Shown: positions 5,566-29,013, counted from the stretch's first letter. The stretch is 64,000 nucleotides of DNA from Prolixibacteraceae bacterium (GCA_963677405.1 OY781961.1:2253123-2317122); one strand, 5' to 3'. The notes: generated from the sequence alone by a model not told the origin. Numbers and translations are program-made.

Positions 5566-7902
5566 CTAAGGCATATTTTTTCGTGCATATCTGTTTTTAT
5601 ACAATTTTCCGGCAACAATCCATGTCCCAATTACTCCTGTCAAAAAGATAATTCCAATAATTAAAAAATATTTCGCTCCATGATTGGCTCCTTCCAAAAT
5701 GGTGGTCTTGGGAGCAAAAATCAAATAAAACCCGAATGCAAAGAATAAAGTGAAAATAAATATACCTCTGGAAACCAGCATGATATTAAGAATGGTGTCG
5801 TTGCTGAGTTTATACCTGGCCAAATACGAAGAAAAGCCCCATGTCACCAATAATAGTGCGAAGCAAATAATACAACACCACATTGAAAAGATGGAATAGA
5901 TTTCCCATCTAACCCATAAGTAATGACAGAGAAGCGAATTTTCAATGGTGTTGACGTTATCCATATCATATTCTTGGTAATCTGTCCAAAGTGTTGGTGA
6001 ATTTCGATAGGTCTTTAAGTAACTTGGGCTATAATCGCATTCACAGATCGAATTTTCTGTTTTTGGATCTTTATAATTTAGTCTACTTTCCATCGCCCAC
6101 TGAAAGTCTTCAATAAATAAATTGATGTAATGACTAAAAGTCAGGGCTGGTTTGCCAGCGACATGCTTTTTATCGACATGAATTGTGTCAATACGAATAA
6201 GCGTAGCTCCAATTGCATCCCATAATTCCGAATAACCGTCATCCTCTCCAATCCCTTTTATACATACACCACCAAGTCCGTTTCCAAGTGCCCAATCATA
6301 CTTTTGGTATAAACTCCTGAAATCTTCGTACCATATTTGTTCTTTATCTGCAGGATTCGGTCCCATGACATTTATGTAGCTAGCCATTTGATTCGGATCA
6401 AAACCTTGGAATACACTGCTTTTATTTACGGTTTTATTCAAATAATCATTGACAATCTCTTTGTAAGTAGGGTTTCCTTCAATTAACGAATTTGGCGGAT
6501 TGCCCTCGAAATTGTCGACTTGCCATAGAGTCCCTGTATATGAAACAGTCATAATAAGTTTTGAAACCGGTATTTTCCCATTGGCATAGAATCCAATGGT
6601 CGATTCAATGGAATTTTTCCCGTATTTATCACTGCTTAAAAGCGGAGATGAAGATTGTGCTATGCCACTTTCCGAATCTGTAATATGATCGGTCATCACG
6701 AAATAGTAGTCAACCAGATGATTGAGCTCTGAAAAGTCATATCCACTTATCTTTTTTAGGCTCACATCGTCGTCCGTTATTGCCGGAATTGTGATATTTA
6801 GCTGAATTGCATTATTCAGCATCTTTAAGTCATCGTGAAGTGTTTCTATAAATTGAACAAAAGCATTTGGGTCCGAAACATCACCAAAATAGATGTTTAT
6901 TCCTTTTAGATTGCTCTTACTAATCAAGGTATCCAATTCGATGAGTAGCCTTTTTTGTGCAAGATTATCGCCCAGAAATTTTTTAATTTCTGATGAACTC
7001 TGATTATAAACAGTTAGGTGCAGATCACAGCCTTTGCTTTGTGCCAGTTCTATTATTCCACCTTTTTCCTGAAATTTCTGAATGTCATTTGTTTTCTTAT
7101 TCTCTCCTTTAGATGACAAGTCATAACCGTATAAGTTTATGGATGATAAATAATTGTAGTTGTAATTCTTGAATTCATCATTCATTTCGGGACTTTGCCA
7201 TCCAATAACTTTAATCTTTGGATTTAAGCTTCTCTTGAAGAAGTATATCGTATCTTTTTTTACATAGCTGTTTGTTCCGGCTAAATTAGAGGCAGCTGAA
7301 TACTGAACTTCGCGTACATCTTTAAGAATATCGTTGTTTTTGGAGATTAGATCCCTTTTGGCCTGACTGTTTTCGTTCGCATTTTCCTGAAGAACTGCGC
7401 TCATTTGTGTTCTTAACGAATCAAAACTTGCACCCATTTGTTTTACCAGGTCATTAATAACGGATTGGTTCGCTATTTTATCCAGATCGTGGGTTTTAAT
7501 AATCGAATTGATTGATGCTTTAGTTGCAGTATCCTGGGCTACAAGAGCATTAAATTCAATCATTATTTGAGATACAGTAGCCGTATCAATTTTCAGTTGT
7601 TTATTGTTAATTCGGTTATTCAAAAATTTAAAAATCCGATCGTTTTCCGTAGCATCTCTGTTGGCTCGAAATTTAATTGGTTTTACAATCTTCTTTAAAA
7701 TACCCTTGTCAGGTTTTTGCTTTGAATCTGGATCTAAATTTATCTTCGATGGTGCTATTGTAACCTGAGCACTCGTTTCGGTTTGCGCCAAACAAGCAAC
7801 AAAAATCAAGATCACTAATCCTGTTTTCGGGAATATTTTTCTCATTTGCATCAGGCTTTTCATTAGCTGTTTCATTTTAATATATTTAGTACTTAGATCC
7901 AT
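5566..7902 (-). CDS. Secreted/membrane-anchored GH18-like protein lacking the catalytic motif
   Basis: Signal peptide MRKIFPKTGLVILIFVACLAQ (likely start 7845 or 7851). GH18 barrel hallmarks (DYYFVMT, SSSPL, IPVSKLIMTVSYTG, QIWYEDFRSLYQKYDWALGNGLGGV). The DxDxE position reads GINIYFG. Three C-terminal hydrophobic helices. Confidence 0.7.
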   Translation of the reverse strand: MDLSTKYIKMKQLMKSLMQMRKIFPKTGLVILIFVACLAQTETSAQVTIAPSKINLDPDSKQKPDKGILKKIVKPIKFRANRDATENDRIFKFLNNRINNKQLKIDTATVSQIMIEFNALVAQDTATKASINSIIKTHDLDKIANQSVINDLVKQMGASFDSLRTQMSAVLQENANENSQAKRDLISKNNDILKDVREVQYSAASNLAGTNSYVKKDTIYFFKRSLNPKIKVIGWQSPEMNDEFKNYNYNYLSSINLYGYDLSSKGENKKTNDIQKFQEKGGIIELAQSKGCDLHLTVYNQSSSEIKKFLGDNLAQKRLLIELDTLISKSNLKGINIYFGDVSDPNAFVQFIETLHDDLKMLNNAIQLNITIPAITDDDVSLKKISGYDFSELNHLVDYYFVMTDHITDSESGIAQSSSPLLSSDKYGKNSIESTIGFYANGKIPVSKLIMTVSYTGTLWQVDNFEGNPPNSLIEGNPTYKEIVNDYLNKTVNKSSVFQGFDPNQMASYINVMGPNPADKEQIWYEDFRSLYQKYDWALGNGLGGVCIKGIGEDDGYSELWDAIGATLIRIDTIHVDKKHVAGKPALTFSHYINLFIEDFQWAMESRLNYKDPKTENSICECDYSPSYLKTYRNSPTLWTDYQEYDMDNVNTIENSLLCHYLWVRWEIYSIFSMWCCIICFALLLVTWGFSSYLARYKLSNDTILNIMLVSRGIFIFTLFFAFGFYLIFAPKTTILEGANHGAKYFLIIGIIFLTGVIGTWIVAGKLYKNRYARKNMP

Positions 7903-27663: not shown

Positions 27664-29013
27664 TTAAACGATGCTTTTCCCTTCTTTTATTTTTTCCATG
27701 CGTAAGCCTGCCTGAATATCTTTCCTTTCAATGATTCGGTTATTTCGTCCCAGACACTTTAAAATGCTGTAATGCAAAACATTAATAATAGATGCAGCAC
27801 TTAGTTCATGTTGCTCAGCTAAAACTTCCAGATCAACATCATCGGCATATTTAAATTCGTTGGTTATCGATTTCTTCCACAAGATGTGTCTGTTATGTGC
27901 ATCCGGAATATCAAAATCCAACACGAGCTGAAATCGCCTGAAAAAAGCTTCGTCGATATTCTTTTTAAAATTTGAGCATAAGATAACCAATCCGTCAAAA
28001 TCTTCCATACGCTGAAGTAAATAAGACACTTCCTGATTGGCATAGCGATCATGCGAATCTGTTGTTTTACTCCTTTTTCCGAAAAGGGCATCTGCCTCGT
28101 CAAAAAAGAGAATCCAATTCTTCGATTCCGCCATATTAAAAACACCAGATAAGTTTTTCTCGGTTTCACCGATGTATTTCGAAACAACCATCGACAGGTC
28201 AACCCGATAAACATCCATTTGGAAATGTTTACCTAGAAGACTCGCTGTTAATGTTTTACCTGTTCCAGGAGGTCCTGTGAAAAGTACTTTAAATCCTGGT
28301 TTAATCTTTTTCCCAAATTGGTAATCAGTTTTCAATATTTTACCGTGAAGCACATAATCTTTAATCTCTTCGAGTCCCAGCTGCACCTGATCTGCGACTA
28401 CCAAATCTTCCCACTCCTGTGGGGTGGTTATTCTTTTGGCAGGAAAATTTGGGCTAAAATCGGGTTTATATACATCTCCAACGGTTAATAACGATAAGTA
28501 TTCCTGAGAAATTGAAAGCATCCCGTACAAAAGCGGTTCGTTTGACGATGAGCGCTCGAGTGATAAAATTCCGTCACGCTGGAAAAAATGATATTTGGAG
28601 AACAGTGTTAATGCTTCAAATCTTTTTTCCAGATTGGCACCAACAAGCAGAAAGATAGCAGTTTCTCCAGTTGGAAGATAACCTTTGTGTTTGTCGTATC
28701 GAATTCCGCCAAATTCGGTAAAAGGTATATCGTAAAGGGTATTTTTCATATGCAGCAAATCCAGCATCGATGGTTTCACATGAGGAATCAATGCCAGAAT
28801 TAAAACCAACCGTTCGGCCAAATTCATTGAATGATCTTTTATTAATTTGGCGTATGGCGAATGTTGGTTTTCAACGGATGGCAGAGGTAAATTCCAGATT
28901 TCTTCTTCAGTGACTGATTGTTCAAAGCTGATTTTTCCCCTTAACAAAATCAGTTGCTGAAACCATTCAAGTTCCATTTCAATGGTTTTTGCATTTTCAG
29001 AATTTATACTCAT
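27664..29013 (-). CDS. eCIS AAA+ ATPase (Afp15-like)
   Basis: Walker A GPPGTGKT, DLSMVVSKYIGETEKNL, Walker B ILFFDEADALFGKR, DRYANQEVSYLLQRME. Confidence 0.95.
   Translation of the reverse strand: MSINSENAKTIEMELEWFQQLILLRGKISFEQSVTEEEIWNLPLPSVENQHSPYAKLIKDHSMNLAERLVLILALIPHVKPSMLDLLHMKNTLYDIPFTEFGGIRYDKHKGYLPTGETAIFLLVGANLEKRFEALTLFSKYHFFQRDGILSLERSSSNEPLLYGMLSISQEYLSLLTVGDVYKPDFSPNFPAKRITTPQEWEDLVVADQVQLGLEEIKDYVLHGKILKTDYQFGKKIKPGFKVLFTGPPGTGKTLTASLLGKHFQMDVYRVDLSMVVSKYIGETEKNLSGVFNMAESKNWILFFDEADALFGKRSKTTDSHDRYANQEVSYLLQRMEDFDGLVILCSNFKKNIDEAFFRRFQLVLDFDIPDAHNRHILWKKSITNEFKYADDVDLEVLAEQHELSAASIINVLHYSILKCLGRNNRIIERKDIQAGLRMEKIKEGKSIV

Follow-up and report, generated by a model that had tools for sequence, protein, structure and literature searches.

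Does a gene cluster for a contractile injection system (CIS), a syringe-like device resembling a phage tail, encode a particle that leaves the cell or a gun that stays anchored to it? Clade-Ib CISs are abundant in Bacteroidota and only a handful have been studied; to our knowledge, the choice between these two modes cannot yet be read from a cluster's sequence. The cluster described here lies on the minus strand at positions 3288-29013 of the window (the whole 64,000-nt stretch of Prolixibacteraceae DNA that was analysed), and it encodes every core part of the Afp/PVC lineage with no frameshifts. The functional unit is larger than the span 5566-29013, as it also includes cargo genes (3288-5326) and an upstream region to ~29330. 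As a sequence-only reading of this DNA had reported, the right boundary lacks an integrase or transposase, and the next gene is trhO (NF001133, 2.9e-77), followed by dusB. Neither kind of gene abuts the left end of the cluster; the nearest tyrosine recombinase gene is outside the window (-7446..-5653), past a symporter gene and Tex. The intergenic region between cis15 and the divergent trhO (29014..29736), presumably the promoter region, carries a Bacteroidetes-type TAnnTTTG motif at 29321 on the minus strand. In a sister genome, G021, conservation of this region extends down to 29028, the start of a deletion.

From the trhO side, the minus-strand structural genes begin with Cis15 (27664..29013), an AAA+ ATPase of the cargo loading/assembly type (PF00004, 1.7e-27) that is 96% identical to its orthologue in Aquipluma nitroreducens (dN/dS 0.048). 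The tail cap protein, Cis16a (26379..26951; PF14065 Pvc16_N, 1e-28), is followed by the cap adaptor, Cis16b (25345..26370), whose residues 4-90 match the SalCis16b cap (PDB 9r9n_C, E 2.6e-6). Next are a single sheath protein of 559 aa, Cis2 (23645..25324); the gp19 inner tube protein, Cis1 (23153..23605; PF06841, 3.1e-47); a second gp19-type tube protein, Cis5 (22692..23153; PF06841, 1.2e-36); a 60-aa plug, Cis6 (22509..22688; PF19265 DUF5908, 5.8e-13), which is conserved in 32 related loci; and the tube-baseplate adaptor, Cis7 (21843..22499; PF19266 CIS_tube, 6.2e-46). The spike and baseplate are represented by the VgrG protein Cis8 (20042..21838; PF04717), the PAAR tip Cis10 (19731..20030; PF05488, 1.7e-26), the gp25-like wedge Cis9 (19283..19726; PF04965, 2.6e-19), an 1179-aa gp6-like protein with a cage extension, Cis11 (15725..19264), and a gp6/gp7-like protein, Cis12 (11861..14791), the last two identified by PDB matches. 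The tape measure, Cis14 (7893..11864), is 1323 aa long and matches PF19268 (9.1e-95) over residues 836-1322 only. It is the most divergent structural gene relative to genome G026 (77% identity). From Cis16a to the GH18 gene that follows the tape-measure gene, intergenic gaps are at most 39 bp or the genes overlap, making the operon a tight one; the overlap between the tape-measure and GH18 genes is 10 nt.

Each member of the core set, from sheath to Cis15, has a Pfam or PDB match and is full length relative to its orthologues. Thus, the earlier statement that all core genes are present without frameshift is borne out by uninterrupted minus-strand ORFs, with families assigned by Pfam and PDB sequence searches. 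The sequence-only reading missed a 299-aa fibre-like gene at the Cis13 position, an antisense ORF, and Cis6, the last because the ORF lists started at 80 aa.

As judged from its gene content, the locus is a real and complete CIS of the Afp/PVC lineage, or eCIS as dbeCIS uses the term, belonging to clade Ib and, within it, to a SalCIS-like subgroup; the cluster is an ordinary addition to a well-known CIS group. Sheath, Cis11, Cis12, and VgrG all give higher search scores with clade-Ib members than with Afp/PVC. For the sheath, the best PDB match is SalCis2 (9r9h, 2.4e-153, 515 bits), followed by AlgoCIS (7adz, 8.9e-118, 397 bits) and tCIS (7b5h, 2e-108, 367 bits), with PVC/Afp far behind (~1e-55, 142-207 bits). 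Cis11 matches Alg11 (7aeb_G, 3.1e-75), SalCis11 (9rce_A, 5.2e-74) and tCIS (2.7e-58), and Cis12 matches All3315 (6.2e-73), Alg12 (1.2e-69) and SalCis12 (2.1e-41).

SalCIS, from Salmonella enterica subsp. salamae [Ejaz et al., Nat Commun 2026, PMC13266070; 9r9h, 9r9n, 9rce], shares with this locus the single sheath protein, the Cis16a plus Cis16b cap, a baseplate caged by Cis11/Cis12, and a VgrG of equal length. Both operons also contain a short fibre-like gene and a gene for a membrane protein in which a signal peptide is followed by a SleL-like domain and then by three transmembrane (TM) helices at the C-terminus (778 aa here versus 775 aa for SalCis20 [PMC13266070]). SalCIS, too, has DUF4157/HExxH cargo, which there lies near an AAA+ ATPase. 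However, the two hosts belong to different phyla. Unlike in SalCIS, Cis15 lies upstream of and co-oriented with the structural genes, the cargo genes are at the far end, Cis16b is 341 rather than 260 aa, and the locus also holds a pLGIC pair and an antisense gene for a TM coiled-coil protein. In addition, the helical insert of SalCis11 domain IV (residues 419-549) is not aligned here: the Cis11 alignment covers only SalCis11 residues 174-281 and 546-1311, and the intervening stretch is 157 aa here versus 264 aa in SalCis11. Release of SalCIS has not been seen; its particles lie against the inner membrane, and the subgroup with a Cis20-like protein and a short Cis13-position fibre has been proposed to be membrane-associated [PMC13266070].

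Other clade-Ib systems share some of these features. AlgoCIS of Algoriphagus machipongonensis [Xu et al. 2022, PMC8894135; 7adz, 7aeb], from the same phylum, has a cap adaptor, a Cis6 plug, a Cis11 cage, and lumenal cargo that includes a predicted metalloprotease, Cgo1, but its sheath protein of 692 aa carries additional domains, the Ig-like Alg19 serves as its fibre, and the particle, with a 92-nm sheath, is released into the medium. T6SS subtype iv of Amoebophilus asiaticus and Aureispira sp. [Böck 2017; bioRxiv 10.1101/2024.01.29.577165], also Bacteroidota clade-Ib systems, resemble the locus in tape measure and cage and have long tails (420 nm in Aureispira); short trimers like SalCis13 are reported for them [PMC13266070]. 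Their anchoring has been observed in situ, whereas the present locus is known from its genes alone; a trans-envelope complex and antennae are further features of Aureispira, and no genes for either were identified here. The thylakoid-anchored CIS of Anabaena, tCIS [Weiss et al. 2022, PMC8894136; 7b5h], has the same cis11-cis13-cis12 order, a similar baseplate-binding segment at the Cis13 N-terminus, and closely matching Cis12 and VgrG. Its Cis13 terminates in a TM helix; the fibre here ends in a soluble, beta-rich domain. A Cis19 crown and a Cis12 extension are specific to tCIS.

Three genes outside the core bear on how the particle would be deployed. The GH18 gene (5566..7902, minus strand; PF00704, 1.9e-20) encodes the 778-aa Cis20-like envelope protein, which reads as a signal peptide, a helical stalk, a GH18 barrel, and the three C-terminal TM helices. 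Its barrel resembles SleL (profile match to 4s3j, 9.8e-13; Foldseek matches to 4s3k/4s3j, ~5e-18). The likeness to SalCis20 is one of architecture only, that is, Sec signal, SleL-like fold, and TM helices: SalCis20 (PDB 9R9A) is absent among the 8 sequence matches listed and among the best 60 of 103 profile matches, and the fold library behind the Foldseek search predates the release of 9R9A. Throughout the family, the GH18 acid motif reads KGINIYF, with the catalytic acids lost; from this motif the domain is judged to be catalytically dead. Members of this membrane-protein family and of the Cis13-type family are found together on the same contigs. The short fibre at the Cis13 position (14816..15715, minus strand; 299 aa) matches tCIS Cis13 All3316 over residues 6-43 (E 0.008), and no hydrophobic helix was found along its 299 aa, including the C-terminus, where tCIS Cis13 has its TM helix. 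In an AF2 model (pLDDT 82), the C-terminal half is mainly beta strands, with Bdellovibrio fibres, phage tail fibres, and T4 gp9 as top fold matches at low TM-scores; there is also a match to a PHROG tail fibre (1.4e-5). The fibre family has 115 members, and in those related loci that were examined its gene is flanked by cis11 and cis12. Finally, the antisense ORF (27214..27627, plus strand) encodes 137 aa with an N-terminal TM helix and a coiled coil. It is conserved (dN/dS 0.25), with matching position and orientation in G026 and in 8 further Prolixibacteraceae loci, and weakly matches the Rz-like spanin phrog_739 (E 8e-4).

The payload is likely to be lumenal, by analogy with AlgoCIS, in which Cgo1 and Cgo2 have been demonstrated as tube-lumen cargo [PMC8894135]. 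VgrG aligns end to end with its relatives (residues 6-598 with SalCis8 8-597, 11-598 with tCIS All3320 14-589, and likewise with Alg8), and the 99-aa PAAR protein has its PAAR domain at residues 24-89; as had been claimed, neither has a toxin extension. Since no effector domain is carried on VgrG or PAAR, the probable payload is the two proteins encoded downstream, which share an N-terminal leader, and the earlier proposal of lumenal cargo appears reasonable. Cargo candidate 1 (4436..5326, minus strand) has the leader, a DUF4157/eCIS_core domain with HEAWH (PF13699, 4e-9), and a small C-terminal domain that is swapped in G026, where the match is limited to residues 1-218. Compared by description only, it resembles SalCgo1 rather than SalCgo2. 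Cargo candidate 2 (3288..4400, minus strand) has the same leader (..QFTDNR..) and what reads as a toxin-like C-terminal domain; searches of Pfam and NCBIfam gave no matches, and dN/dS is 0.15. Separating the structural operon from the cargo genes is a hairpin-forming insertion of 188 nt (5379..5566) with 9-bp inverted arms (fold of -41.9 kcal/mol, z of -2.8). It has no counterpart in G026, and a partial second copy is present at genome positions 3968642-3968750. Beyond the cargo genes, a co-oriented gene pair encoding a Cache-pLGIC and a pLGIC (1..3229, minus strand; family matches) forms a variable accessory at the cluster end: in G026 an IS4-type DDE transposase stands in its place, and weak homologues are found near the CIS in two other loci (L055 and L058).

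The host is an Aquipluma species of the family Prolixibacteraceae, and the lineage had been correctly placed, since its nearest relatives are Prolixibacteraceae of this genus. Cultured A. nitroreducens has the same cluster, collinear and at the same trhO site, with ~90% nucleotide identity, and each core gene, as well as the GH18 gene, aligns end to end with its orthologue there. Across all CIS genes dN/dS is 0.015-0.28 and dS is 0.23-0.56, the latter like that of flanking genes. These values indicate that the locus has passed vertically through one Aquipluma subclade under purifying selection; with its genes intact, it does look like the functional system that had been proposed. Such a system is not unusual for the lineage: 22 of 37 genus genomes have some Cis11 homologue, 8 have the CIS type of this locus, and the genome itself contains a second CIS. 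Among the papers searched, none linked a CIS to Prolixibacteraceae or Marinilabiliales.

It might be argued that the cluster is an intact-looking yet silent relic, heading for loss. Of the cluster, the sister species G021 has kept at the same site just the sheath gene and two tube genes, the second of them frameshifted, and it has no Cis11 genome-wide; no CIS adjoins trhO in eight more distant congeners, the distribution across the genus is patchy, and the 188-nt hairpin element has been inserted between the structural and cargo genes. Yet each gene is full length, with dN/dS no higher than 0.28 over a divergence of dS ~0.4. Wastewater cDNA libraries contain exact fragments of the tube, sheath, ATPase, and cargo genes, which speaks weakly against silence given possible DNA carry-over. 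We consider a relic very unlikely. A prophage tail module or R-type tailocin is effectively refuted. Sheath, tube, and baseplate genes are indeed phage-derived, but CIS_TMP, CIS_tube, Pvc16_N, DUF5908, eCIS_core, and the Cis15 AAA+ ATPase are all present, and the top structural relatives are CISs, with pyocin and T4 sheaths matching at only ~1e-5. The ORFs scanned from about window position -11400 to 39300 include none for a capsid, portal, terminase, or integrase, no lysis cassette, and no other phage head or replication genes. Very probably, the locus encodes a clade-Ib CIS that is intact and functional and carries its cargo in the lumen.

By analogy with solved systems, wedges of Cis9, Cis11, and Cis12 together with six Cis13-position fibre trimers would form a caged baseplate around the VgrG-PAAR spike, which Cis6 would plug. 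Rings of Cis7, Cis5, and Cis1 and the single sheath protein would then polymerise along the 1323-aa tape measure until capping by Cis16a and Cis16b, giving a particle expected to be several times the length of AlgoCIS. Cis15 may help to load the two leader-bearing proteins into the tube lumen. The Cis20-like gene, last in the structural operon and translationally coupled to the tape-measure gene, is predicted to encode an inner-membrane protein that is exported by the Sec route and whose periplasmic GH18 barrel is devoid of catalytic acids. This protein may bind the cell wall and, via the Cis13 fibres or next to them, dock the baseplate to the envelope of the producing cell, so that the docked machine would fire outward on contact, as with T6SSiv or SalCIS, rather than act as a free particle. 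We give this whole reading, in which an intact and functional clade-Ib CIS loads its lumen with cargo and is docked at the envelope, a probability of about 0.5; docking, as opposed to free release, is itself an even bet.

The sequence-only reading had called the system an eCIS, that is, released and extracellular. That label was an assumption and does not sit well with a Cis20-like membrane protein, a short fibre, and a closest solved relative, SalCIS, that is not released [PMC13266070]. A classical extracellular CIS nevertheless keeps a substantial, if somewhat smaller, share of our belief. Such a CIS would assemble freely in the cytoplasm, leave by lysis of a subpopulation, bind its target through the fibres, and inject lumenal cargo, with the GH18-like and antisense TM coiled-coil proteins serving to breach the envelope or to aid release rather than to dock. 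AlgoCIS and MACs, of the same clade, are released [PMC8894135]. The fibre lacks the TM helix of tCIS Cis13, and its tip resembles prey- and host-binding fibres, that is, fibres for foreign surfaces, a likeness just as compatible with a released particle. The i-spanin-like architecture and weak Rz-like match of the antisense ORF favour release by lysis, and SleL, to which the GH18 fold is related, is a cortex-lytic enzyme. Docking is further weakened by the lack of alignment to the SalCis11-specific helical insert and by the modest evidence for membrane anchoring of SalCIS, whose activation conditions its authors call unknown [PMC13266070]. Against release, lytic activity is unlikely for a GH18 family that lacks the catalytic acids throughout; no holin, endolysin, or o-spanin is among the locus ORFs scanned, and integral membrane proteins are not known in Afp, PVC, or AlgoCIS particles. 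Envelope docking could also be extended into a docking and trigger module, in which the Cis20-like protein, the antisense TM coiled-coil protein, the Cache-pLGIC, and the pLGIC would provide for ligand-gated firing or assembly. We regard this as improbable. If true, the four membrane proteins would make a chemically triggered CIS, held at the inner membrane and gated by a sensed small molecule.

The AlgoCIS-like system of this genome is not the trhO-linked cluster but the second locus, at genome 3.913-3.937 Mb. It encodes a 1439-aa PKD fibre-like protein and a tape measure of 513 aa (that of the trhO-linked cluster is 2.6 times as long), and it has no GH18 gene. The different fibre, short ruler, and missing GH18 gene suggest a division of labour between the two systems. 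Because the trhO-linked locus is intact and under selection, has an orthologue in A. nitroreducens, a cultured strain that is not pathogenic, and shares its genome with this AlgoCIS-like locus, it is a clean natural test case. The second locus differs in fibre, in ruler length, and in having no membrane partner; two systems in one cell could reveal which accessory genes set the mode of action.

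From 29013 down to 3288, the minus strand of the window is an unbroken array of open reading frames (ORFs; ORF listing of the window) that encodes a contractile injection system (CIS). Pfam matches on this strand identify the AAA+ ATPase Cis15 (27664-29013), the Pvc16_N cap protein Cis16a (26379-26951), the sheath (23645-25324), two gp19 tube proteins (23153-23605 and 22692-23153), the CIS_tube protein Cis7 (21843-22499), VgrG (20042-21838), PAAR (19731-20030), gp25 (19283-19726), the CIS tape measure (7893-11864), a GH18 protein (5566-7902), and an eCIS_core/DUF4157 protein (4436-5326). 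ORFs left blank by Pfam were named by searching the sequences of solved structures (PDB). A 1179-aa protein is Cis11 (Alg11 of Algoriphagus AlgoCIS, 3e-75; SalCis11 of Salmonella SalCIS, 5e-74), a 976-aa protein is Cis12, and a 341-aa protein matches the cap adaptor SalCis16b; the tape measure has no match among the PDB sequences. A 60-aa gene (22509-22688), kept in 32 related loci, lies in the apparent 193-bp "gap" that separates Cis7 from the second tube gene; its product falls in the Cis6 plug family, DUF5908 (5.8e-13). From Cis16a to the GH18 gene, every gap is at most 39 bp, or the genes overlap. Together with these family matches, the full-length alignment of every cluster protein to its orthologue in a second species, Aquipluma nitroreducens, bears out the sequence-only reading of a complete cluster with no visible frameshifts. 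That reading had also seen no toxin extension on the spike, and indeed SalCis8, All3320 of the thylakoid-anchored tCIS of Anabaena, and Alg8 each align with VgrG from end to end, and PAAR is a bare 99-aa domain.

The right neighbor is, as had been proposed, trhO (2.9e-77), and no mobility gene abuts the cluster. It is followed by dusB, a PepSY_TM-like gene, msrB, a DUF502 gene, terC, a glutamine amidotransferase gene, and a sulfatase gene. The segment 35413-36258, with the gene for a 231-aa class-I glutamine amidotransferase (35546-36241), is absent from the otherwise collinear A. nitroreducens and the sister species G021. The nearest mobility-type gene lies 5.6 kb past the left end of the window: a 597-aa tyrosine recombinase (window -7446 to -5653; genome 2245677-2247470, minus strand; L135:7676-9469) with N-terminal SAM-like domains and a Phage_integrase match of 2.2e-42. 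It is conserved in A. nitroreducens, is separated from the cluster by a conserved flank (a Na/alanine symporter and Tex), and is probably unrelated to the CIS. With no phage head, replication, or lysis genes among the ORFs scanned from about window -11400 to 39300, the cluster is neither a tailocin nor a prophage.

Within the cluster, the AT-rich Cis15-Cis16a interval (712 bp, 31% GC) contains an antisense 137-aa ORF (27214-27627, plus strand) with a TM helix and a coiled coil. Its position and orientation are conserved across Prolixibacteraceae CIS loci, and its only match, to an Rz-like spanin, is weak. In scans for regulatory signals, σ70 promoter sites did not exceed the level in shuffled sequences, and terminator-like sites were rarer than in shuffled sequences. 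Each intergenic region yielded a single candidate for the Bacteroidetes -7 motif, which is not decisive. An Rfam gathering scan of window 1-34000 gave no match. A 188-nt insertion (5379-5566), absent in A. nitroreducens, separates the structural operon from the cargo genes. Its inverted arms are 9 bp each (ACTCACCCC...GGGGTGAGT), and it folds as a long hairpin (z -2.8). The genome has a second, partial copy at 3968642-3968750, and a 43-nt piece turns up in wastewater cDNA contigs, where its flanks are unrelated; the insertion may represent a terminator or a small mobile repeat.

The genome holding the window is a single contig of 5.64 Mb (40.3% GC). The genome compared here as A. nitroreducens (contig of 5,712,279 bp) encodes proteins to which NCBI gives that species name, so the source of the window is another Aquipluma species. 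The nearest sheath loci belong to Prolixibacteraceae MAGs, and the lineage first guessed is confirmed. In A. nitroreducens the whole cluster likewise adjoins trhO and is collinear with window 3264-42113 at ~90% nucleotide identity; only the far left end differs. There, the present genome has a Cache-pLGIC and pLGIC gene pair (window 1-3229), and A. nitroreducens has an IS4-type DDE transposase (PF01609, 6.9e-16; L081:8043-9542, plus strand); the left flank in A. nitroreducens is equivalent to window -7508 to -141. The transposase takes the place of the pair, so the channel genes do not invariably accompany the cluster, even in sister species. The C-terminal domain of the DUF4157 cargo is also swapped in A. 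nitroreducens. Pairwise comparison of the two species gives dN/dS values of 0.015-0.28 for all CIS genes, and their dS (0.23-0.56) is indistinguishable from that of flanking housekeeping genes (0.29-0.72). The cluster has thus co-diverged with the chromosome under purifying selection, and of the computational evidence this argues most strongly for a functional system. Recent horizontal acquisition is ruled out by dS values equal to those of the flanks and a GC content only slightly under the genome mean. In wastewater libraries labeled RNA-Seq cDNA, assembled contigs reproduce stretches of the tube, sheath, ATPase, Cis12, and cargo genes exactly or almost exactly, at depths like those of trhO and its neighbors; this fits in situ transcription, although carry-over of DNA may be another source.

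The same site is decaying in G021, whose TrhO is 96% identical (L023, 9884-12600). Here 92 bp separate trhO from an intact sheath gene (88% identical); next come one intact tube gene and a second that is frameshifted. A rearrangement breakpoint coincides exactly with the end of the frameshifted gene, and the DNA beyond it lies 217 kb away in the present genome. The segment corresponding to window 25350-29027 (Cis16b, Cis16a, and Cis15) is cleanly deleted, and no Cis11 homologue is found genome-wide. The sheath ORF of this relic remains intact amid the decayed cluster. In eight more distant congeners, the DNA upstream of trhO corresponds to the 2.4644-2.4687 Mb region of the present genome and contains no CIS; three of the eight have a 55-57% identical system on other contigs. 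Across the genus (n=37), classified by Cis11 content, this type of system occurs in 8 genomes, only distant Cis11 homologues in 14, and none in 15. The cluster thus lies at a synteny breakpoint. The ancestor of one subclade already carried it, and at least one lineage descended from that ancestor is losing it. Among Prolixibacteraceae MAGs, the sheath genes of four loci (L069, L071, L073, and L077) are 86-88% identical to that of the window in their C-terminal part, are diverged in the N-terminal half (63% in L069), and carry a ~90-aa insertion between residues 281 and 321, a pattern pointing to a sheath surface domain that is variable.

Two proteins bear on how the machine might be deployed. 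The 299-aa protein encoded between cis11 and cis12, a gene position shared by its family in the related loci examined, has an N-terminus resembling a segment of the tCIS Cis13 (All3316), which is baseplate-binding (PMC8894136). It is a tail fiber by PHROGs (1.4e-5), and its predicted model (pLDDT 82) best matches trimeric Bdellovibrio and phage fibers and T4 gp9, at low TM-scores. Inspection of its sequence revealed no TM helix; because the Cis13 of tCIS has one, the cluster is not a tCIS. A 234-aa protein cluster (P0112) was rejected as the Salmonella SalCis13, as it comes from freshwater metagenomes and is encoded in a gene cluster with a 2401-aa tape measure. Such freshwater contigs (L132, L133, and L134) hold a related CIS with the order cis11, short fiber, cis12 and an extra 66-aa gene; the 2401-aa tape measure would predict an extremely long tail. 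The other protein, encoded by the GH18 gene, consists of a signal peptide, a helical stalk, a GH18 barrel, and three C-terminal TM helices, and its family co-occurs with the Cis13-type family on the same contigs. Family-profile search and Foldseek both relate the barrel to SleL and YaaH, which are cortex-lytic enzymes. SalCis20 (775 aa) has the same domain order, and SleL is its reported reference fold (PMC13266070). SalCis20 (9R9A) was not among the 8 matches listed for the single protein nor among the best 60 of 103 for the family profile; the two proteins are likened by architecture and SleL fold, not by direct sequence match. The GH18 acid motif reads KGINIYF in the present protein and in the family consensus, and, judged from sequence, the protein is probably a glycan binder rather than a hydrolase.

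The two downstream cargo candidates (3288-5326) share an N-terminal leader that includes QFTDNR, and one has an HEAWH motif within DUF4157. The earlier proposal that the payload is lumenal cargo gains support from the spike, which bears no extensions, and from the analogy with AlgoCIS Cgo1 and Cgo2, the precedent for such cargo (PMC8894135).

The solved relatives SalCIS, AlgoCIS, and tCIS supply the assembly model. At about even odds (~0.5), the cluster would encode an envelope-associated, contact-dependent machine. In favor, the best sheath match is to SalCIS, which was not released and lay at the inner membrane (PMC13266070). A conserved Cis20-like membrane protein, coupled translationally to the tape measure (the genes overlap by 10 nt), also argues for anchoring. 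So may the tape measure, 2.6 times as long as that of a second CIS locus in this genome, since SalCIS (600 nm; PMC13266070) and T6SSiv (420 nm; bioRxiv 10.1101/2024.01.29.577165) typically have long tails; the AlgoCIS sheath measures 92 nm (PMC8894135). That second locus, which is AlgoCIS-like and separate, lacks a GH18 gene and lends further support. Release of free particles as an eCIS, at somewhat under even odds, would draw on the membership of AlgoCIS and MACs in the same clade, on a fiber that has no TM helix and resembles target-binding fibers, and on the i-spanin-like architecture of the antisense ORF.

The second locus (genome C1:3913164-3936985, plus strand, outside the window; L130:9164-20000 and L131:1-12985) looks complete. 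Its order is Cis16a, a 291-aa ORF, a 696-aa sheath, two tube genes, Cis7, VgrG, PAAR, gp25, Cis11, Cis12, a 1439-aa PKD-domain fiber-like protein, a 513-aa tape measure, a 685-aa DUF4157-OmpA protein, a 145-aa ORF, and an AAA+ ATPase. This layout resembles that of AlgoCIS; neither the GH18 membrane gene nor a Cis13-type short fiber was found in it.

The cluster in the window has the core that defines clade-Ib CIS. It shares with SalCIS-like clusters, a subgroup described in 2026 (PMC13266070), the membrane-protein architecture and the sheath affinity; the 299-aa protein is its candidate for their short fiber, and the helical insert of SalCis11 has no aligned counterpart in its Cis11. A literature search for CIS together with Prolixibacteraceae or Marinilabiliales found no paper linking them. 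The system is common in Prolixibacteraceae, and the two loci offer a tractable pair of contrasting CIS, the first of which has an orthologue in a cultured relative.
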